DNA of 64,000 nucleotides from Escherichia coli (lineage in GTDB: Bacteria; Pseudomonadota; Gammaproteobacteria; Enterobacterales; Enterobacteriaceae): assembly GCF_024700885.2 (NCBI RefSeq), contig NZ_CP117016.1, one strand, 5' to 3'. The position numbers and the translations under genes were made by a program. Shown here piece after piece: positions 1,747 to 51,385 of this stretch. How positions within the stretch are numbered: position 1 is the first letter of the stretch; each line of letters starts with the position of its first letter. The notes under the pieces are model-generated. The model was not told where the DNA came from, ran no database searches, and worked only from the letters and a program-made list of their open reading frames with translations.

Positions 1747-2778
<1,032 letters not shown>

Positions 2779-2818
2779 CCGCTGATTTACCCGGCGCAGT
2801 CTCTTCTGCGCCGGTGTA

Positions 2819-3772
2819 TTAACCTATCTCCTGTAACGCATGTCTCTGGCGTTCGACGATATTGGTCCACAAATTGTCTTTATCGTCAGTCCACAAATTA
2901 ATCAGCAAGGCAAAAAAGCGTTCAGCTGCCGGAGAAAGCACGGCATCTTTGCGGCGAATAATCCCCAATGTCCGACGTATAACCGGTTCCACCAGCGGGA
3001 TACCAATAATCGAAGAATAGGGTGCATGGGGCATTGCCAGACCAGGAAGCGCCGAAATCCCCAGTCCCGCCTCCACCAGTCCTAATGACGTCGAAAGATG
3101 ACGCACTTCGTAAAACCAGTCCAGCTTCCAGGGCTTGTCGGCCAGCTGTTGTTCTATCAACAGTCGGTTGCCGCTGGAGGAGCGTACGCCAATCATTTTG
3201 TAACCCACTAACTCCTGCCATTCTACAAGCTGCTTTTTGGCCAATGGATGGTCACGCCGACAGGCCAGCACGAACGGCTCGTTGACCAGTGGGGTAAAAT
3301 CAATGGATGAATTTGTGACGTTGTTCATGTTTATGCCAAAGTCTGATTCGTTACACAGCACCGATTCCATGCAATTATTCGTGCCTTGTTCCAGAATCCG
3401 CACTTTAATATTGGGATACAGCTCATTAAATTTACCGATTGCCAGCGGTAAAAAATAAAATACCGCGGTCGGAATACACGCTAACGTCACCATACCACGA
3501 TGATAAGCATTCATATCACGAATATTAAAAAGCGTTTCATCGAATTTCTTTATTAATTCCCGCGCCTCCGGGAGCAACCTTTTTCCTGCTTTTGTTAACG
3601 TAACCTTGCGAGTTGTACGCTCAAATAGTTGAATATGTAAATCTTCCTCCATCTTTTTTATTCTTCGCGTTAATGCAGGTTGCGTAATATTGAGTAATTT
3701 AGCGGCATTGTTAAATGAACTGGACTCTGCCAGTATGACAAATGCCTTCATACTTGATAATTCATGCTTCAT
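2819..3772 (-). CDS. ybhD: LysR-family transcriptional regulator
   Basis: Minus ORF with N-terminal HTH (AAKLLNITQPALTRRIKKMEEDL) and LysR substrate-binding domain; start set to ATG at 3772 (MKHELSS). Confidence 0.85.
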   Translation of the reverse strand: MKHELSSMKAFVILAESSSFNNAAKLLNITQPALTRRIKKMEEDLHIQLFERTTRKVTLTKAGKRLLPEARELIKKFDETLFNIRDMNAYHRGMVTLACIPTAVFYFLPLAIGKFNELYPNIKVRILEQGTNNCMESVLCNESDFGINMNNVTNSSIDFTPLVNEPFVLACRRDHPLAKKQLVEWQELVGYKMIGVRSSSGNRLLIEQQLADKPWKLDWFYEVRHLSTSLGLVEAGLGISALPGLAMPHAPYSSIIGIPLVEPVIRRTLGIIRRKDAVLSPAAERFFALLINLWTDDKDNLWTNIVERQRHALQEIG

Positions 3773-3955
3773 TATTACTCCGAAAAATGGAAGCGTCGAT
3801 TTTGGGTGGCTGGCCGTTAAAAATTTTAACTGCATTTAGCCAACTTAAATTAATGAAAAAATGTTATTAATCGTTGAGCTAAAGTCATTAGAGATGCTTT
3901 GCCCTTAATGTAACCATATCGCAATAAGTTATGTTTTTAAATTGAGGGCATTATT

Positions 3956-5008
3956 ATGAAAAAAATACCCTGCGTGATGATGCGAGGTGGAACCTCGAGG
4001 GGCGCGTTCCTGTTAGCGGAACATCTACCCGAAGATCAAACGCAGCGCGATAAAATATTGATGGCAATTATGGGTTCCGGTAACGATCTGGAAATTGACG
4101 GTATTGGCGGCGGTAATCCGCTGACCAGTAAAGTCGCCATTATTAGCCGTTCCAGCGATCCGCGTGCAGATGTCGATTATCTGTTTGCTCAAGTTATCGT
4201 CCATGAGCAACGTGTCGATACCACGCCTAACTGCGGCAATATGCTGTCTGGGGTTGGGGCATTCGCCATTGAAAATGGTTTGATTGCAGCGACTTCGCCA
4301 GTTACCCGCGTACGTATCCGCAACGTCAATACTGGTACGTTCATCGAGGCTGATGTGCAAACGCCAAATGGTGTTGTCGAGTACGAGGGTAGCGCCAGAA
4401 TTGACGGCGTACCGGGTACTGCCGCACCGGTTGCGCTCACTTTCCTGAATGCCGCCGGAACCAAAACCGGAAAAGTCTTCCCGACTGATAATCAGATTGA
4501 TTATTTTGACGATGTCCCGGTGACCTGTATCGATATGGCGATGCCAGTTGTCATTATTCCTGCTGAATATCTGGGAAAAACAGGCTATGAATCACCGGCG
4601 GAGCTGGATGCCGACAAAGCATTATTAGCCCGCATTGAATCTATCCGTCTACAAGCGGGTAAAGCAATGGGCTTAGGCGATGTCAGTAATATGGTTATCC
4701 CTAAACCTGTGCTTATTTCTCCAGCGCAGAAAGGCGGAGCAATTAATGTGCGTTATTTTATGCCGCATTCTTGCCATCGCGCGCTGGCGATAACCGGAGC
4801 TATTGCCATTTCCAGTAGTTGTGCATTGGAAGGCACCGTCACCCGACAAATCGTCCCTTCTGTAGGATACGGCAATATCAATATTGAACACCCCAGTGGT
4901 GCGCTCGACGTTCATTTAAGTAATGAAGGTCAGGATGCCACGACGTTACGCGCATCTGTTATTCGGACAACCAGAAAAATATTTTCCGGTGAAGTTTATC
5001 TTCCCTGA
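3956..5008 (+). CDS. ybhH: PrpF/AcnD-accessory-like putative isomerase
   Basis: 350-aa ORF MKKIPCVMMRGGTSRGAFL..., characteristic of the PrpF family. Confidence 0.8.
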   Translation: MKKIPCVMMRGGTSRGAFLLAEHLPEDQTQRDKILMAIMGSGNDLEIDGIGGGNPLTSKVAIISRSSDPRADVDYLFAQVIVHEQRVDTTPNCGNMLSGVGAFAIENGLIAATSPVTRVRIRNVNTGTFIEADVQTPNGVVEYEGSARIDGVPGTAAPVALTFLNAAGTKTGKVFPTDNQIDYFDDVPVTCIDMAMPVVIIPAEYLGKTGYESPAELDADKALLARIESIRLQAGKAMGLGDVSNMVIPKPVLISPAQKGGAINVRYFMPHSCHRALAITGAIAISSSCALEGTVTRQIVPSVGYGNINIEHPSGALDVHLSNEGQDATTLRASVIRTTRKIFSGEVYLP

Positions 5009-5083: not shown

Positions 5084-6517
5084 ATGAATAAGAAATCGTT
5101 ATGGAAGCTAATTCTGATATTAGCGATCCCATGTATTATTGGCTTTATGCCAGCTCCGGCAGGATTAAGCGAACTGGCGTGGGTGCTTTTTGGTATTTAC
5201 CTGGCGGCCATTGTGGGGCTGGTTATCAAGCCTTTCCCGGAACCTGTCGTACTGTTAATTGCCGTTGCTGCCTCAATGGTGGTGGTCGGTAACTTATCCG
5301 ACGGTGCGTTTAAGACCACCGCCGTATTAAGCGGTTACTCTTCAGGTACCACCTGGCTGGTGTTCTCGGCGTTTACCTTAAGCGCCGCATTTGTGACCAC
5401 CGGCTTAGGTAAACGTATAGCCTATCTGCTGATTGGTAAAATTGGTAGCACTACCCTGGGTCTGGGTTACGTTACGGTATTTCTCGATCTGGTACTGGCT
5501 CCGGCAACACCGTCTAACACCGCGCGTGCGGGCGGTATTGTGTTACCGATCATCAACAGCGTGGCGGTGGCTTTGGGGTCCGAACCGGAAAAAAGTCCGC
5601 GTCGTGTCGGACATTACCTGATGATGTCCATTTACATGGTCACCAAAACCACCAGCTATATGTTCTTTACCGCAATGGCGGGGAATATTCTGGCGCTGAA
5701 AATGATCAACGACATTCTGCACCTGCAAATTAGCTGGGGTGGATGGGCGCTGGCCGCTGGATTGCCGGGTATCATTATGCTGCTGGTCACCCCGCTGGTG
5801 ATTTACACCATGTATCCGCCAGAAATTAAGAAGGTGGATAACAAAACCATCGCCAAAGCGGGCCTTGCCGAACTGGGACCGATGAAAATCCGCGAAAAAA
5901 TGCTGCTCGGTGTCTTCGTGCTGGCGCTGCTGGGCTGGATTTTCAGTAAGTCACTGGGGGTTGATGAATCCACCGTGGCAATCGTTGTTATGGCGACTAT
6001 GCTGCTGCTGGGTATCGTTACCTGGGAAGACGTGGTTAAAAATAAAGGCGGCTGGAATACCTTAATCTGGTACGGCGGTATTATCGGCTTAAGCTCCTTA
6101 TTATCGAAAGTTAAATTCTTCGAATGGTTAGCTGAAGTCTTTAAAAATAACCTGGCATTTGATGGTCACGGTAACGTTGCTTTCTTCGTTATTATTTTCC
6201 TCAGCATTATCGTGCGTTATTTCTTCGCTTCCGGTAGTGCCTATATCGTTGCCATGTTACCAGTATTTGCCATGCTGGCGAACGTCTCCGGCGCGCCGTT
6301 AATGTTAACCGCGCTGGCACTGTTGTTCTCTAACTCCTATGGCGGCATGGTTACTCACTATGGCGGCGCGGCAGGTCCGGTCATCTTTGGCGTGGGTTAC
6401 AACGATATTAAATCCTGGTGGTTGGTCGGTGCGGTACTGACGATATTAACCTTCCTGGTGCATATCACCCTCGGCGTGTGGTGGTGGAATATGCTGATCG
6501 GCTGGAACATGCTGTAA
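5084..6517 (+). CDS. ybhI: Divalent anion:Na+ symporter (DASS)-family membrane transporter
   Basis: 477-aa highly hydrophobic multi-TM ORF; conserved gene order ybhH-ybhI-ybhJ. Confidence 0.85.
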   Translation: MNKKSLWKLILILAIPCIIGFMPAPAGLSELAWVLFGIYLAAIVGLVIKPFPEPVVLLIAVAASMVVVGNLSDGAFKTTAVLSGYSSGTTWLVFSAFTLSAAFVTTGLGKRIAYLLIGKIGSTTLGLGYVTVFLDLVLAPATPSNTARAGGIVLPIINSVAVALGSEPEKSPRRVGHYLMMSIYMVTKTTSYMFFTAMAGNILALKMINDILHLQISWGGWALAAGLPGIIMLLVTPLVIYTMYPPEIKKVDNKTIAKAGLAELGPMKIREKMLLGVFVLALLGWIFSKSLGVDESTVAIVVMATMLLLGIVTWEDVVKNKGGWNTLIWYGGIIGLSSLLSKVKFFEWLAEVFKNNLAFDGHGNVAFFVIIFLSIIVRYFFASGSAYIVAMLPVFAMLANVSGAPLMLTALALLFSNSYGGMVTHYGGAAGPVIFGVGYNDIKSWWLVGAVLTILTFLVHITLGVWWWNMLIGWNML

Positions 6518-10360: not shown

Positions 10361-10375
10361 GCTTTTTTATACTAA
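10361..10375. other. attL: attL core (GCTTTTTTATACTAA), followed by the lambda-like P' arm
   Basis: Core is followed by GTTGGCATTATAAAAAAGCATTGCTTATCAATTTGTTGCAACGAACAGGTCACTATCAGTCAAAATAAAATCATTATTTG, lambda attP P'-arm sequence. Confidence 0.9.
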
Positions 10376-13671: not shown

Positions 13672-14264
13672 TGGTTGCCTCCTTTTCGAAGCTGGGCGGC
13701 GATATCTTCGAGAACGCCATCAGAGAATGAGCGGTCAAAATCGCCTTCCGGCGCATTAGCCATAAACTCAGTAGAGGTAAGAATCATCCGGGCAATATCC
13801 GCGGCGTTCTTCGCAGTATCATCAATAAAACCAGCTTCCCAGGCAGCCAGCATTCTGTTCGCCACAAAATAAGCGCCTTCCTTGCGTGCTTCAGTCTTCA
13901 CTTCAGCTAGAAAAGCATCGGTAGCTGGAGTTTCGCTGTGGTGCAGGGCATCGTTGATAATCATTGCAGCAACTCCGGCCTGCCCTGCATCCGTGACCGA
14001 CACATGCTCAAGAGTTACGGCCATTGCGTGTTTCAGCCCGGCGTTCTCTGCCACCAGCGCCGCGAGATTAGTCTCAAGCTCTGCAATACGGCACATAGCA
14101 TCAATATTTGTGTCTTCCAGCCGCTTAATTTCATCCAGTAGAGCCAGTGCCACCGATGGCGTGAACGCCATACGAAACGCCACAAAATTTTGATGCATAG
14201 GTTCTGTTTCTACTGCAACTGCCGCATCTCGCAGTGCCTGATAGTCAATTGTCATTCTCGCCAT
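13668..14264 (-). CDS. Ead/Ea22-like hypothetical protein, paralog B
   Basis: 198-aa ORF with N-terminal [12 protein letters not shown] motif (compare paralog A). Confidence 0.6.
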   Translation of the reverse strand: MARMTIDYQALRDAAVAVETEPMHQNFVAFRMAFTPSVALALLDEIKRLEDTNIDAMCRIAELETNLAALVAENAGLKHAMAVTLEHVSVTDAGQAGVAAMIINDALHHSETPATDAFLAEVKTEARKEGAYFVANRMLAAWEAGFIDDTAKNAADIARMILTSTEFMANAPEGDFDRSFSDGVLEDIAAQLRKGGNQ

Positions 14265-14896
14265 CCTTCACAGTTGTAATCACGACAGCCTTCAAAATCA
14301 TATGGGCTGTACTGCCAGGTAATTTTTCCGCAATGCGGACAATTCCAACGCACCTTCCCGCTTCGCGACTTCTTTCTTCTGTTCTGCTTTTTCAACCAGT
14401 CAGGCATGACCAAACCTGCGCCCTGAACCATTGTTCTGCGGTTAAAGTTATTGATATTGAACGTCCGGCGCTTTGCTGAATCAGCAATGGAAAATGGCAA
14501 CCAAACTATTCCTGGTTCGTTTTTGTTGGCGACGCTAAAGATGGTCGCTTTACTGAAGTCATCTGTTGGCAATCCACCGTGTTGAAGCCAGTAAACATCG
14601 TTGCCGTTCCAGCTACCTTTTTTGTAGGCCACATACGCAGTGCAATCTGACTCAATCAGGCTTTCTGTAGGGATGTACTGGCAATCAACGTGCCACACTG
14701 CCATTGCATCCACGCTATCCGCGCAAACAGGCTGATCGATATCTCGCCCACAATTCCAGGCTTTTTGGGCTTCTTCCAGCGTGTAAACATGAGCGCGATC
14801 GATATCAGAACTGTAACCATTGCCGTTATGGCAATGGAATGAAGCGTTATTGCCCACAGTTTCACGCGAGCACATCATGTAAAAACGGTTAGTCAC
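14252..14896 (-). CDS. Hypothetical Cys-rich early protein
   Basis: Track ORF 14252..14917; C-terminal CPHCG...CRDYNCEGW Cys cluster; start moved to a GTG at 14896 that is preceded by AGGAGG. Confidence 0.5.
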
Positions 14897-15076
14897 TGGC
14901 TGCCTCCTTTGCGCCACATCGCATTCAGATATTTGTTTTCATTCACTGATGGAAAAGAATTTCTCTTAAGTAATTCCTCTCTCGATGGCATTGGCTTTAC
15001 GCGTTGGCGAATAATCATTTCTGCCGGAAGAATGCCGGGATTGTATGCAAGTCCTCTCATGGTAAATTACTCTTTG

Positions 15077-15391
15077 TTAATTTATTTGTATGCCTGCTCT
15101 TTCTTCATCGAGTTTTTTTAGCTTGTATCGCATAGCTCTTACTGAATAAATTGAGCGGCAGGTTGCAATTGCTATTTCTTCTGCGGAGAACTTACCGAAA
15201 AGTGATACTTCGGCTCTTGTCCATCGTCTTCCACGAAGTCGGCTAACAATGTCAGCGCCAATCCTTGTTGCTTTCGCCATTACTGCTTTTTCAGTCCTTT
15301 CCAGTTTTTCAGCGATAACTTCAACTGGCATTGTCGCCGCCACTTCGCGCAAGAAATCGACTTCCCATTTCTCCCATGGAGTCTTTTTCAT
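15077..15391 (-). CDS. Hypothetical protein with two internal Myb/SANT-like repeats
   Basis: 104-aa ORF with internal duplication (WEKWEVDFLREVAATMPVEVIAEKL / WTRAEVSLFGKFSAEEIAIATCRS). Confidence 0.55.
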   Translation of the reverse strand: MKKTPWEKWEVDFLREVAATMPVEVIAEKLERTEKAVMAKATRIGADIVSRLRGRRWTRAEVSLFGKFSAEEIAIATCRSIYSVRAMRYKLKKLDEERAGIQIN

Positions 15392-15402
15392 AGGCGATAC
15401 CG

Positions 15403-15891
15403 TTATTTGATAAGAAGTGAAGGTTTCCCAACTTTGAGTTGAGCACCGGGGATATTTATTCCTGCTTTTAGTTGGTGTTTGATTGCCAGTTTGTCGGCTT
15501 TAATTGTCGTTTCAAACTCAACGTATTCAGGAGGAAGGGTGCTTGAGTCGATGATTTCTACAGTTTCTGACGGTTTGCGGATTGTTACCTGGTGAATACC
15601 TGCTCGAATCTTTTTCTTGCCAACCATTTCAAGCGATGACGCTATATACGCCATAATGCTGTCAATCTTATTTTGAATTACTGCGGCTCGCTCATTTAGT
15701 GACTTTGCCTCGTCCTTGAGGCGTTCAGCATAACCAGATTCATTTTTAATAATGGCAAGAAGTTGCTCTATTTTATCGGTAAATTCTCCTTCCATGCCTT
15801 CTATTGTGTCAGCAATCATCTCTGGCTCTAAATCTGAATCCATCAATTTTGCGTATTCATTGGCTATTTCATATAGTTTGCTCACTGGCAA
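15403..15891 (-). CDS. Gp157-like phage protein
   Basis: 162-aa coiled-coil-rich ORF immediately downstream of RecT; resembles Siphovirus Gp157 family. Confidence 0.55.
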   Translation of the reverse strand: MPVSKLYEIANEYAKLMDSDLEPEMIADTIEGMEGEFTDKIEQLLAIIKNESGYAERLKDEAKSLNERAAVIQNKIDSIMAYIASSLEMVGKKKIRAGIHQVTIRKPSETVEIIDSSTLPPEYVEFETTIKADKLAIKHQLKAGINIPGAQLKVGKPSLLIK

Positions 15892-16771
15892 CCTCCAGTT
15901 TCGCTTTGCATTCTATGTAAATGGCTTGTACGTTCTGCTGCAATTTCATTCCAGATGTCAGGCGATATGCTTCTGCAAAATATCGCTTCAAATCATCCAT
16001 GTTTTCTGCCTGAGCCATTTCATCACAAAGAAGTTGTGCTTTTTCCATAATTTCCTGCTGGCGTTTCCGTTCATCTTCGCGGATATATTCCTCTGATTTG
16101 TGCGGCATAACTGGTTCAGTCCACACACCTTCTTCTTCGTTTAGTACGTGAATAGCACTATCAAGACGTGATGCCTTAGGCCAATACTTGCTTGCACGCT
16201 TTACGACCGTCTTTCGCGCCATCTCTTCCCAGAATGTTTTCCACGGTCCATTCTTTGCCTTGCTCGTTGCTTCCACAGCTTTAATTTCTGCCAGACTCAT
16301 TTCTTCAGTCAGGTAGTCACCATCTGCTGTTTTAACCGTGCAATAACCACCAACAATAGAGCCTCGCTCACCAAATGCGTTGTATTTGTGGGTTGGTGCT
16401 GAATCAAGACCGTTTGATTCATAGGTGTCGTTTGAGTACACCAGTTTGCATTGCCCCCACTTAATTGATCCTGTCGACTGTGCAAGGTGAAGTAATCCCA
16501 TGTAACTGATATCAAGGCACACCATGCCGTCGCGAGGAACCAGATAAGCCAGTTTGCTGGCCGGGTTTAAGGTGATGCCGATCGCCGCAACGTTGATGAT
16601 AGCGTTCTGTGCGCTGGTCGGATTTGCCAGTGCCGTTTTAGCCAGGTAATCATTTTTCTGGAAATACTGAATTGCAAACTGGCTTTCCTTAGCCCATGTC
16701 ACCGTCTGTTCAGTCAATGCTCCGCAGAATAACTGCTCCTGCTGTTTAACGAATTCAACGATATTGCTCAT
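15869..16771 (-). CDS. recT: RecT-family single-strand annealing recombinase
   Basis: 300-aa ORF with RecT-like core (GYCTVKTADGDY...EEMARKTVVKRASKYWP); occupies the lambda bet position. Confidence 0.8.
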   Translation of the reverse strand: MSNIVEFVKQQEQLFCGALTEQTVTWAKESQFAIQYFQKNDYLAKTALANPTSAQNAIINVAAIGITLNPASKLAYLVPRDGMVCLDISYMGLLHLAQSTGSIKWGQCKLVYSNDTYESNGLDSAPTHKYNAFGERGSIVGGYCTVKTADGDYLTEEMSLAEIKAVEATSKAKNGPWKTFWEEMARKTVVKRASKYWPKASRLDSAIHVLNEEEGVWTEPVMPHKSEEYIREDERKRQQEIMEKAQLLCDEMAQAENMDDLKRYFAEAYRLTSGMKLQQNVQAIYIECKAKLEVASEQTI

Positions 16772-17079
16772 GCTGCTTCTCCATAAATGTGTCTGCGTTT
16801 GAATATTGCGAAGGCATATTCAGCCTTAACTCTTTCGGTTATTGCATCCCAGAACCATTCAGCGGCTTTTTCCTGATAGTTACAGTCATCATCTTCCAGC
16901 CAGTCGATAGCGTCCTTAGTGTGTTCATCTGGTTTATATGAGCGAAGCATTTCGCTTATTGGGTCGCAACGTTTGCAGAGGCGATCAACTTCACTGTTGA
17001 TTCGTTCGTAATCTTCATCAGTAAAACTTGCGATTATTTGCGATATTTCACGCTTATCATTCAGAGTCAGAATCATCAT
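16768..17079 (-). CDS. Hypothetical early protein (103 aa)
   Basis: ORF with overlapping stop/start to recT. Confidence 0.5.
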   Translation of the reverse strand: MMILTLNDKREISQIIASFTDEDYERINSEVDRLCKRCDPISEMLRSYKPDEHTKDAIDWLEDDDCNYQEKAAEWFWDAITERVKAEYAFAIFKRRHIYGEAA

Positions 17080-17160
17080 CTTTCTCCTGTTCTTTGTGCT
17101 GATTGAGCATTTTGTTCATCTGACGAATGAATTCTTCGTCTGACCAGTTATCTGTAAAAC

Positions 17161-17313
17161 TCATTTCCTGCGATACCACGGAAGGTTGATAGCTGATTTC
17201 ATCTCTTTATTTGCTTCAAGCCACATTTTGGAATCACCAATAAATCTGGCTATTACTGCTTTGTTTTGTGCCGCACGAAGCATCTGGTGATTGATGGCTA
17301 TTTCATTGCGCAT
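17161..17313 (-). CDS. Kil-like small protein (50 aa), not in ORF track
   Basis: Hand translation MRNEIAINHQMLRAAQNKAVIARFIGDSKMWLEANKEMKSAINLPWYRRK; FIGD-containing small protein adjacent to the cIII-like gene, as kil is in lambda. Confidence 0.4.
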   Translation of the reverse strand: MRNEIAINHQMLRAAQNKAVIARFIGDSKMWLEANKEMKSAINLPWYRRK

Positions 17314-17432
17314 AACGCCTCCAGTTGTTTCTTTGCTGCTCTGATTAATTGTTTAACTCGGCGTGATAATTCAGATTCGTGCGGGTAGAAAGCGGACATG
17401 ACGCCGCTACCCGCGAGCTGAAAGTGCATCAT
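17298..17432 (-). CDS. cIII-like protease inhibitor (short)
   Basis: Internal start of ORF 17298..17537: MMHFQLAGSGVMSAFYPHESELSRRVKQLIRAAKKQLEALCAMK, pattern-similar to lambda CIII; preceded by GGAG. Confidence 0.45.
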   Translation of the reverse strand: MMHFQLAGSGVMSAFYPHESELSRRVKQLIRAAKKQLEALCAMK

Positions 17433-18369: not shown

Positions 18370-18696
18370 TCAAATAAGTGGTTTGCTGCCTAATTTCATT
18401 TTCTGGCGACCAACACAAGTCACGCCCATTTCACTGCGTGGCTTGCTGTACCATGTGCGCTGATTCTTGCGCTCAATACGTTGCAGGTTGCTTTCAATCT
18501 GTTCGTGGTATTCAGCCAGCGCCGTAAGGTCTATCGGATTCAGTGCGCTTTCTACTCGTGATTTCGGTTTGCGATTCAGCGAGAGAATAGGGCGGCTAAC
18601 TGGTTTTGCGCTTACCCCAACCAACAGGGGATTTGCTGCTTTCCATTGAGCCTGTTTCTCTGCGCGACGTTCGCGGCGGCGTGTTTGTGCATCCAT
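18370..18696 (-). CDS. N: Antitermination protein N
   Basis: Internal start of track ORF: MDAQTRRRERRAEKQAQWKAANPLLVGVSAKPV..., the arginine-rich motif of lambda/434 N. Confidence 0.9.
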   Translation of the reverse strand: MDAQTRRRERRAEKQAQWKAANPLLVGVSAKPVSRPILSLNRKPKSRVESALNPIDLTALAEYHEQIESNLQRIERKNQRTWYSKPRSEMGVTCVGRQKMKLGSKPLI

Positions 18697-18858
18697 CTGG
18701 ATTCTCCTGTCAGTTAGCTTTGGTGGTGTGGTAGGTGGGAGACCCATTTCGACCTGCTTCGGCCGACTTCAATTCGGCAATAGTTCCGCAGGCCTCGCCG
18801 CTTTACGTGCGACATATTCCCATCCATGAACCCTTCACCACACCCCAAAGCCTTCTGC

Positions 18859-19062: not shown

Positions 19063-20415
<1,353 letters not shown>

Positions 20416-23387: not shown

Positions 23388-23828
23388 ATGAAAAAACTAA
23401 CCTTTGAAATTCGATCTCCAGCACATCAGCAAAACGCTATTCACGCAGTACAGCAAATTCTTCCAGACCCAACCAAACCAATCGTAGTAACCATTCAGGA
23501 ACGCAACCGCAGCTTAGACCAAAACCGAAAGCTTTGGGCCTGCTTAGGTGACGTCTCTCGTCAGGTTGAATGGCATGGTCGCTGGCTGGATGCAGAAAGC
23601 TGGAAGTGTGTGTTTACCGCAGCATTAAAGCAGCAGGATGTTGTTCCTAACCTTGCCGGGAATGGCTTTGTGGTAATAGGCCAGTCAACCAGCAGGATGC
23701 GTGTAAGCGAATTTGCGGAGCTATTAGAGCTTATACAGGCATTCGGTACAGAGCGTGGCGTTAAGTGGTCAGACGAAGCGCGACTGGCTCTCGAATGGAA
23801 AGCGCGATGGGGAGACAGGGCGGCATGA
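23388..23828 (+). CDS. ninB: NinB (Orf family recombination mediator)
   Basis: 146-aa [62 protein letters not shown]..., recognised as lambda NinB. Confidence 0.9.
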
Positions 23829-24381: not shown

Positions 24382-24559
24382 CCCATCCCAATCCCTTCAA
24401 TACCAGAAAGAAAGCGTCGAGCGGGCTTTAACGTGCGCTAACTGCGGTCAGAAGCTGCATGTGCTGGAAGTTCACGTGTGTGAGCGTTGTATATATGAAT
24501 GCTTAAATATGGTGGAACATAATGAGAAATATAAGCAACATAGACGAATTAAGAAATAA
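24374..24559 (+). CDS. ninF: NinF-like protein with 3' end displaced by an insertion
   Basis: N-terminal 35 aa ([37 protein letters not shown]) match lambda NinF as recalled; the remainder is unrelated, and the expected NinF C-terminus (CAELMSDPNSSMYEEEDDE) is encoded at 25030..25086 in another frame. Confidence 0.6.
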   Translation: MLSPSQSLQYQKESVERALTCANCGQKLHVLEVHVCERCIYECLNMVEHNEKYKQHRRIKK

Positions 24560-25031
24560 ATTATCATATGATGATGTTTTAGGTGTGCTTAGATGGAAAG
24601 TGTCTCCTTCTAATAATGTTAAGGTTGGCAGTGTTGCTGGTTACATTAGGAGTGATGGTTATAGGATGTTAACTATCGATGGTGTAATTACTTATGCTCA
24701 CCACGTTATATGGATGATAAATAATGGTGAGATTCCATTAGGGTATAAAATTGATCATATAAATGGAGTAAGGTCAGATAATAGGCTATCTAATCTTCGA
24801 TTGGTTACACACCAACAGAATGCACAGAACCAAAAGAGAAAAATAACCAATTCGTCAGGAGTGACTGGAGTATATTTCAATAAAGAGAGATGTAAGTGGA
24901 TTGCGAATATATGCGTAGATGGGCGCACCAAATATCTTGGAATATTTGCAAGCATCATTGACGCTATTGCAGAAAGGAAGAGGGCAGAAAAAGAACTGGG
25001 TTTTCATGAAAACCATGGCAGACCATAACTG
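24487..25031 (+). mobile_element. Inserted free-standing HNH endonuclease cassette inside ninF (approximate boundaries)
   Basis: AT-rich ~0.55-kb segment with its own RBS and ORF, flanked by the two halves of ninF. Confidence 0.5.
24522..25028 (+). CDS. HNH homing-type endonuclease
   Basis: 168-aa ORF with HNH motif (YKIDHINGVRSDNRLSNLRLVTHQQN) and AP2-like segment (GVTGVYFNKERCKWIANI). Confidence 0.8.
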   Translation: MRNISNIDELRNKLSYDDVLGVLRWKVSPSNNVKVGSVAGYIRSDGYRMLTIDGVITYAHHVIWMINNGEIPLGYKIDHINGVRSDNRLSNLRLVTHQQNAQNQKRKITNSSGVTGVYFNKERCKWIANICVDGRTKYLGIFASIIDAIAERKRAEKELGFHENHGRP

Positions 25032-25081: not shown

Positions 25082-25351
25082 ATGAGTGATTTCTCTGAGC
25101 TTATTTCCTTCAAAAAAGACAGAGAAGAAATGCGGACTGAATCTGTCTATTACGTTCAACACCGGAATAAACGCTCTGTGCTTGATCAGGAGCTGGTTAT
25201 TACCGGAGACCTGGCATTCAGAACATATAAGGCCAGCATGGAAATGAAGGATTTCCCTAAATGTGGTTCTGAAAGAGAAGCCGCGTTAAAGCTGGCAGAG
25301 TGGATGCAGAGAATGGCTGCTGCAATTGAGAATTACTGGAGCGAACCATAA
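25082..25351 (+). CDS. nin-region hypothetical protein (89 aa)
   Basis: ORF with ATGA overlap to the ninF remnant stop. Confidence 0.5.
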   Translation: MSDFSELISFKKDREEMRTESVYYVQHRNKRSVLDQELVITGDLAFRTYKASMEMKDFPKCGSEREAALKLAEWMQRMAAAIENYWSEP

Positions 25352-25641
25352 TGGCTAACCTACGCAAAGAAGCACGCGGCAGAGAATGCCAGGTACGTAT
25401 TTACGGCGTATGCAATGGCAATCCTGAAACTACAGTTCTGGCACATTACCGGATGGCTGGAATTTGCGGAACGGGAATGAAACCTGACGACCTGATCGGT
25501 GCATGGGCTTGTAGCGCGTGTCACGATGAAATCGACCGACGTACCCATAACCTCGACAACAAAGACGCCAGACTTTACCACCTCGAAGGCGTGATCAGGA
25601 CGCAGGCGATACTGCTGAGGGAGGGGAAGATTAAGCCATGA
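25351..25641 (+). CDS. nin-region Cys-rich hypothetical protein (96 aa)
   Basis: ORF with Cys/His cluster (CQVRIYGVC...CSACHDEID). Confidence 0.55.
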   Translation: MANLRKEARGRECQVRIYGVCNGNPETTVLAHYRMAGICGTGMKPDDLIGAWACSACHDEIDRRTHNLDNKDARLYHLEGVIRTQAILLREGKIKP

Positions 25642-26000
25642 ACGAATATCAGTTTGTGCTTCCATACCCGCCGTCGGTGAATACCTACTGGCGAAGACGG
25701 GGAAGCCAATACTACATCAGCGATAAAGGCCAGAAATACCGAAAAGATGTACAGCAAATAATCCGCCAACTCAAGTTAGACATTTTCACCAAATCACGAC
25801 TCCGCATCAAAGTCATCGCAGACGTTCCAGACTCCCGCCGCCGCGACCTCGATAACATCCTGAAAGGTTTACTCGATTCCCTTATCCACGCCGGATTTGC
25901 GGAAGACGACGAGCAATTCGATGACATTCGCGTAATTCGTGGTGTGAAAGTACCAGGCGGACGGCTTGGAATAAAAATCACCGAACTGGAGAACGCATGA
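25638..26000 (+). CDS. rusA: RusA-type Holliday-junction resolvase
   Basis: 120-aa ORF with LPYPPSVNTYWRR and DLDNILKGLLDSL motifs typical of RusA. Confidence 0.85.
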   Translation: MNEYQFVLPYPPSVNTYWRRRGSQYYISDKGQKYRKDVQQIIRQLKLDIFTKSRLRIKVIADVPDSRRRDLDNILKGLLDSLIHAGFAEDDEQFDDIRVIRGVKVPGGRLGIKITELENA

Positions 26001-51370: not shown

Positions 51371-51385
51371 GCTTTTTTATACTAA
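51371..51385. other. attR: attR core (GCTTTTTTATACTAA), preceded by the lambda-like P arm
   Basis: P-arm sequence (CTGTTACAGGTCACTAATAC...TTGATTCATAGTGACTG...) upstream; bacterial flank CTTGAGCGAAACGGGAAGG downstream. Confidence 0.9.

Follow-up and report, generated by a model that had tools for sequence, protein, structure and literature searches.

The 64,000-nucleotide stretch of the Escherichia coli contig NZ_CP117016.1 analyzed here (the window) contains a lambdoid prophage in which the gene of a RecT-family annealase is followed by that of a Sipho_Gp157 protein (hereafter Gp157), with no exonuclease gene adjoining them. The block is of the HK140 type, and we consider it likely, with a probability of roughly 0.65, that it is a nuclease-free recombination (Rec) module of the P22 functional class, in which RecT anneals single strands and Gp157 acts against RecBCD. 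Such modules are already known and common. Among 246 lambdoid Rec modules, 84 lack a nuclease, and 46 phages have the 'P22' functional type, which consists of an anti-RecBCD function and a single-strand annealing protein (SAP) only (Zheng et al., 2025; PMC12315714). The missing exonuclease flagged in a first-pass annotation of this stretch is therefore an ordinary, catalogued state found in about one third of lambdoid modules, and it needs no special explanation. What we add is small and testable, i.e., that the C-terminal tail of the annealase co-varies with the protein encoded next to it.

The annealase gene (15869-16771, minus strand) encodes 300 residues, of which residues 31-208 match Pfam PF03837 (E 3.8e-34, 118.4 bits against a cut-off of 24). 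The protein also matches phrog_148 (E 1.8e-92), and the sole solved relative found by sequence is the Listeria RecT 7UB2 (E 7e-5); it is thus a predicted single-strand annealing protein. Gp157 is encoded directly downstream on the same strand (15403-15885, 160 residues, or 162 residues if read as 15403-15891) and is assigned to PF05565 and phrog_253. The first-pass annotation had placed these two genes, in this order, at the position of lambda exo-bet-gam, and Pfam and PHROGs bear out the identities as well as the coordinates and the minus strand. It had also recognized no RecE or lambda-Exo-like nuclease nearby, which holds for the neighboring genes and for the whole prophage. Neither Pfam nor PHROGs gave a lambda-Exo, RecE or YqaJ-type match among the neighbors of RecT, and no family of nucleases or of single-stranded DNA-binding proteins (SSB) was found with them in the contiguous block. 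Searches with phmmer against all 338 prophage open reading frames (ORFs) of at least 50 residues gave noise with lambda Exo, a second lambda-type Exo and the RecE-like nuclease of phage SEN22 (E > 0.4), and only noise with lambda Gam, GamL-type proteins and Abc2. A YqaJ- or lambda-Exo-like product in an adjacent ORF, which the annotation had named as the result that would overturn its view, was found by none of Pfam, PHROGs and phmmer. Among the products of the nin region, namely NinB/Orf, NinX, an HNH_3 protein, YbcO, RusA and Q, there is no resection exonuclease. The block therefore does not have the two-component arrangement of annealing protein and 5'-3' exonuclease seen in lambda Red and RecET, as no such nuclease adjoins the annealase, is found in the whole prophage, or occurs in any of the 80 related loci described below.

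The identity of the module follows from its close relatives. At the DNA level the block is 94-95% identical to those of HK140, mEpX1, Kapi1, Gally, Louie, Dewey and others, the six named being plaque-forming phages. Compared to HK140, the identity is 94.4% over 14912-17164 with the same annotated genes, and the gene table of Gally agrees. The module of HK140 has been described as a SAP of type 4 with a MuGam anti-RecBCD protein, without nuclease and without SSB, and the same SAP type is also found with Exo (phi80) or RecE (Edno5) (Zheng et al., 2025; PMC12315714). In Gally, the block has been named the recT-gam-abc1 recombination module (Misson et al.; PMC9928086). HK140, mEpX1, Kapi1 and Gally share with the window the order of a 103-residue protein gene, RecT, a Gp157/MuGam-like gene, an Abc1-like gene encoding 104 residues, and a DUF2737 gene. 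Within the block the differences from this group are allelic only, while the ea genes downstream vary and a gene for a 214-residue protein is found here. The block has the composition of the P22 functional type (anti-RecBCD present, SSB absent, nuclease absent, SAP present), in which the anti-RecBCD assignment is by homology only.

The arrangement is also conserved beyond these phages. The RecT-Gp157 core was found in 300 of 5426 complete E. coli genomes. All 80 IMG/VR loci collected from a close Gp157 alignment, which are 96-99% identical, have the order RecT, Gp157, 104-residue protein, DUF2737, and none of them contains lambda Exo, RecE, Erf or Abc2. Serratia prophages keep the four-gene block at 31-70% protein identity. 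In a wider survey of Gp157, made up of individual contig look-ups and phage records, the RecT-Gp157 pair was also found in Pantoea, Klebsiella, Aeromonas and Pseudomonas phages, and more distant Gp157 genes adjoin Rad52-type annealases with SSB. In Firmicutes phages, Gp157 genes adjoin erf and sak4 (PMC8093625). Genes for homing-type HNH endonucleases are inserted in or beside some of these modules, among them 2647-3111 of locus L175 (Pantoea phage PdC23) and 3130-3696 of locus L174. One such gene separates the Erf-family annealase and Gp157 genes of PdC23, a Serratia prophage has one upstream of its block, and another is in phage Louie. This fits with mobile HNH genes targeting the recombination-module region.

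The match of Gp157 to PF05565 covers profile positions 1-162 of 162 (E 1.6e-36, 126 bits against 28.6), and all 97 family relatives sampled match this profile as well. PHROGs describes phrog_253 as 'Mu Gam-like end protection' (E 7.6e-53), and the HK140 equivalent of Gp157 has been classed as MuGam, a type that binds DNA ends and blocks RecBCD (Zheng et al., 2025; PMC12315714). When the Gp157 profile was compared with an alignment of the Mu Gam family assembled from IMG/VR loci, hhalign returned 118 colinear columns (E 7e-5). Sub-threshold matches to Mu Gam were found in 18 of the 97 diverse family members (best E 9e-5), and in the reciprocal search the Mu Gam hidden Markov model weakly detected members of the Gp157 family (best E 1e-4). 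The AlphaFold2 model of Gp157, with a predicted local distance difference test score (pLDDT) of 95.6, combines a helix of 68 residues with a small domain at the C-terminus, and is compatible with a coiled-coil dimer. Based on these alignments, a distant relationship between Gp157 and Mu Gam is probable, not proven, and Gp157 is probably a DNA-end-binding, anti-RecBCD protein of the MuGam type.

The tail of RecT (approximately residues 241-300, encoded at 15872-16051 on the minus strand) follows the downstream partner and not the core, which is a modestly new observation. A tblastn search with residues 216-300 found the tail only on annealases preceding a Gp157 gene. These comprised nine proteins with a RecT core and one with an Erf core, all ten followed by a Gp157 gene and sharing one tail motif. 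The core of the PdC23 Erf-family annealase is unrelated to RecT, while its C-terminal 46 residues match the RecT tail at 57% identity (E 8e-15) and the Gp157 encoded downstream is 61% identical. RecT cores that are 72% identical over residues 1-215 precede a lambda-type Exo in P8983 and an Stx2a phage, and there the C-terminal domain of RecT is 52% identical to that of lambda Bet (E 2e-23). The identity between Gp157 proteins was tracked better by tail identity than by core identity (Spearman 0.71 vs. 0.28, the pairs being non-independent). Such co-variation of tail and partner is a hint that RecT and Gp157 bind each other. The C-terminal domain of Bet is reported to bind lambda Exo (Caldwell et al. 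2019). By analogy with the docking of the Bet domain on Exo, the RecT tail may bind Gp157. Taken further, Gp157 could be an end-bound partner that replaces the exonuclease in a nuclease-free two-component recombinase, with a tail of about 55 residues docking the annealase, a proposal that we put forward tentatively and hold somewhat less likely than its negation. Shuffling of partner domains was suggested by Zheng et al. without being analyzed (PMC12315714), and the co-variation offers a concrete and cheap hypothesis for the matching of annealases and partners, which that study left open.

Comparison with known systems places the block closest to HK140 in gene content and relates it to four others. 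P22 has an annealase without a nuclease of its own, and its Abc2 re-programs RecBCD (PMC9836394). The arf-erf-abc1-abc2 block of P22 resembles the present one in occupying the slot between kil and orf56/DUF2737, in combining an annealase with an anti-RecBCD function, in lacking a phage nuclease, and in sharing the PHROG of the 104-residue protein. However, the annealase of P22 is Erf instead of RecT, no homologue of Arf or Abc2 is present in our prophage, and Abc2 binds RecC and re-programs RecBCD, whereas a MuGam-type end binder is predicted here. Lambda Red and Rac RecET likewise include an anti-RecBCD function within the block, but they contain the 5'-3' exonuclease that is absent here. In addition, the anti-RecBCD candidate of our block is unrelated to lambda Gam, and its RecT carries another tail in place of the Bet-type C-terminal domain seen before Exo.

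The likeness to phage Mu lies in Gp157, which is weakly colinear with Mu Gam and has a similar size and long-helix architecture, and in the gp9/Abc1-family gene that adjoins gam in Mu and Gp157 here. On the other hand, Gp157 falls below the Pfam threshold for Mu Gam, the regulator-like gene precedes gam in Mu and follows Gp157 here, and Mu has no annealase adjoining gam. Phage SEN22 has the same flanks as our block, namely the 103-residue protein (96% identical), the 104-residue protein (90% identical) and DUF2737, whereas RecT and Gp157 are replaced by a RecE-type nuclease of the DUF3799/PD-(D/E)XK kind and a 189-residue protein. The exchanged segment (3486-4876 of SEN22, locus L004) makes a clean natural cassette swap between shared flanks. 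SEN22 is the prototype of a class with SSB plus nuclease and no SAP (PMC12315714), and the 189-residue protein, which has no Pfam family and belongs to phrog_11517, is taken to be the SSB of that class.

In the mechanism we propose, Gp157 would dimerize through its long helix and bind double-stranded DNA ends like Mu Gam, and would thereby shield injected and rolling-circle phage DNA from RecBCD. RecT would anneal single strands that the phage itself does not make. Their source may be resection by host enzymes distinct from RecBCD (RecQ/RecJ-type) or, alternatively, replication in the form of lagging-strand gaps and rolling-circle tails. The tail of RecT would probably contact Gp157 and so deliver the annealase at protected ends, with the Abc1-family and 103-residue proteins as likely accessories. 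The prophage carries one Chi site in 41 kb (14051, minus strand), whereas the flanking 23 kb of host DNA contain 11. This agrees with the rule of Zheng et al. that anti-RecBCD phages are without Chi (PMC12315714). Nuclease-free annealase modules bear on how phages are supplied with single-stranded DNA and on how they evade or exploit RecBCD, and they matter for the design of recombineering tools. They are relevant, too, to the question of which phage proteins license a defense system like Gabija, whose reported target is DNA with end-binding proteins on it (PMC12407980).

Several observations weigh against the nuclease-free module as we read it. The match of Gp157 to the Mu Gam family PF07352 is below threshold (16.3 bits against 28.3, E 0.01, profile positions 30-147 of 149). 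The hhalign probability against the Mu Gam family alignment was just 62%, and it was 5% when the Gp157 profile was aligned with the single Mu Gam sequence. A structure search of the PDB with the Gp157 model returned generic coiled coils and neither Ku nor Mu Gam, and Foldseek against BFVD returned only other Gp157 and 'resistance' proteins and no Mu Gam. The literature searched yielded no Gp157-family protein with demonstrated end binding or RecBCD inhibition. Should Gp157, like Mu Gam, block end resection altogether, the origin of the single-stranded substrate of RecT would be left unexplained. Deletion of recT-gam-abc1 in Gally still yields virions and lysogens (PMC9928086), so the module is not essential. 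Finally, the DNA encoding the tail abuts the Gp157 gene, and linkage alone could yield the co-variation of tail and partner.

Four other explanations were weighed, all of them less likely than the nuclease-free module. Gp157 might serve as an annealase loader, a mediator or an SSB-like factor, or have an unrelated role linked to the replication origin or to 'resistance'. The low Mu Gam score and the fold searches without Ku or Mu Gam leave room for this, and the namesake of the family in a Streptococcus phage suggests an unrelated function. Furthermore, Gp157 adjoins mutually unrelated annealases, i.e., RecT, Erf, and the Rad52 type with SSB (PMC8093625), and HK639 and KO-TP1 possess a Gam/GamL-type gene in addition to Gp157, which would be redundant if both did nothing except inhibit RecBCD. 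We nevertheless regard another role as unlikely, because the profile-profile alignment with Mu Gam is colinear over its 118 columns, matches to Mu Gam recur across the family in both search directions, PHROGs and Zheng et al. both assign the MuGam type, and a gene of the Abc1/gp9 family adjoins gam in Mu and Gp157 here. A further possibility is that RecBCD is re-programmed in the style of Abc2, so that the host enzyme itself becomes the resection nuclease of RecT. The P22 model provides a precedent (PMC9836394), and our block lies in the P22 slot from kil to orf56/DUF2737 and encodes an Abc1-family protein. Still, a homologue of Abc2 is absent from the prophage, and binding of RecBCD by Abc1 is not on record in the literature, which makes this explanation improbable. 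The near absence of Chi is expected under blocking and re-programming alike.

The two remaining explanations are a hidden exonuclease and a decayed module. The first-pass annotation had left the choice between reliance on the host and a nuclease hidden among the small proteins, and of these the reliance on host functions stands while the hidden nuclease is largely refuted. The idea that the 103-, 104- or 214-residue protein is a cryptic exonuclease partnering RecT draws on the fact that all three are without a Pfam family above the curated cut-off and that the 214-residue protein is near the size of lambda Exo (226 residues). However, the 103- and 104-residue proteins flank a genuine RecE-type nuclease in SEN22, which implies that both accompany a nuclease and do not replace it, and the 104-residue protein shares its PHROG with P22 Abc1 and Mu gp9. 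The 214-residue protein has a confident structure model without a nuclease-like fold, and its gene is found in only 4 of the 80 related loci, where the ea genes are variable. We therefore find a hidden nuclease very improbable. Scarcely better are the prospects of a decayed module, i.e., a non-functional remnant from which the exonuclease was lost. Close RecT cores (72% over residues 1-215) are indeed paired with lambda-type Exo in Stx phages, and modules of one or two genes have been called 'somewhat suspect' (Zheng et al., 2025; PMC12315714). Against decay, plaque-forming phages and the 300 E. coli genomes have the arrangement intact, it persists across genera where protein identity falls to 31-70%, its start and stop codons overlap, and RecT bears a different conserved tail and not a truncated Bet-type domain.

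The 103-residue protein (16768-17079, minus strand; phrog_3486, E 1.7e-59) is encoded by the first gene of the block, in the slot of lambda gam, and is acidic with an isoelectric point (pI) of 4.65. Nothing significant came from Pfam, PADLOC, a family-profile search of the PDB or an hhalign comparison with lambda Gam. One weak local segment is shared with residues 98-121 of lambda Gam (E about 0.03 by BLASTP and hhalign). The gene lies upstream in 76 of the 80 related IMG/VR loci and has a homologue in Serratia prophages at 38% identity, and the SEN22 version adjoins the RecE-type nuclease there. The slot upstream of the annealase is held by this gene here, in Serratia, in PA-1 and in SEN22, and by lambda Gam/GamL-type genes in HK639, KO-TP1 and one IMG/VR locus (among them 2198-2482 of locus L177 and 2044-2325 of locus L179). 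Its position and the short similar segment are a lead, yet unproven, that the 103-residue protein could be an unrecognized analogue of Gam.

The 104-residue protein (15077-15391, minus strand) is basic (pI 9.9), has two helix-turn-helix (HTH) repeats, and matches phrog_323 (E 2.2e-20); in Pfam it has only a sub-threshold match, to HTH_12. P22 Abc1 and Mu gp9 match the same PHROG (E 1.3e-23 and 5.2e-29, respectively), with the 104-residue protein and Abc1 covering regions of the profile that overlap only partly. A BLASTP comparison with Mu gp9 gave an E-value of 5e-5, and pairwise BLASTP between the 104-residue protein and P22 Abc1 found nothing. Homologues of P22 Abc1 and Abc2 were also sought in the window with BLASTP and tblastn of both proteins, which gave noise only. 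The gene is present in all 80 related loci and is 31% identical in Serratia. In Mu, the gp9 gene lies immediately upstream of gam (5482-6325 of the Mu locus, L005). A phrog_323 HTH gene thus adjoins gam in Mu, Gp157 here, and erf and abc2 in P22, a repeated pairing that suggests a joint role of the Abc1 family with proteins that protect DNA ends or counter RecBCD.

Further downstream, the 55-residue DUF2737 protein (14893-15060, minus strand) is 76% identical to orf56 of P22, whose gene comes after abc2 there. Its gene occurs in all 80 related loci as well as in SEN22 and forms a conserved downstream flank, while its membership of the module is uncertain. The ORF of the 214-residue protein (14252-14896, minus strand) comes next, and past it lie two Ead/Ea22 genes, DUF551 and DUF4222, then xis and int, also on the minus strand.

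The prophage as a whole spans approximately 41 kb (10361-51385) and is integrated at lambda attB adjoining ybhC. It is bounded at 10361 and at 51371 by copies of GCTTTTTTATACTAA, the core of lambda att. The RecT-Gp157 block occupies the lambda red slot of the early left operon on the minus strand, following N (18370-18747), cIII (17298-17432) and kil (17161-17313), all on the same strand. The genes of the block are tightly packed: the stop codon of the 103-residue ORF overlaps the start of RecT in an ATGA, the GTG start of Gp157 overlaps RecT by 17 nucleotides and has a GGAGG upstream, and 11 nucleotides separate Gp157 from the 104-residue ORF. Outside the early left module, recombination-related functions are also encoded in the nin region by NinB/Orf (23388-23828), the HNH_3 endonuclease (24522-25028, plus strand), the putative nuclease YbcO (25351-25641, plus strand) and the RusA resolvase (25638-26000, plus strand).

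The gene of the cI-like repressor (19464-20096, minus strand) is overlapped at its 3' end by a 158-residue ORF (19063-19539, minus strand) in the slot of lambda rex, at whose position RefSeq has a shorter hypothetical protein. This ORF may be a moron expressed during lysogeny.

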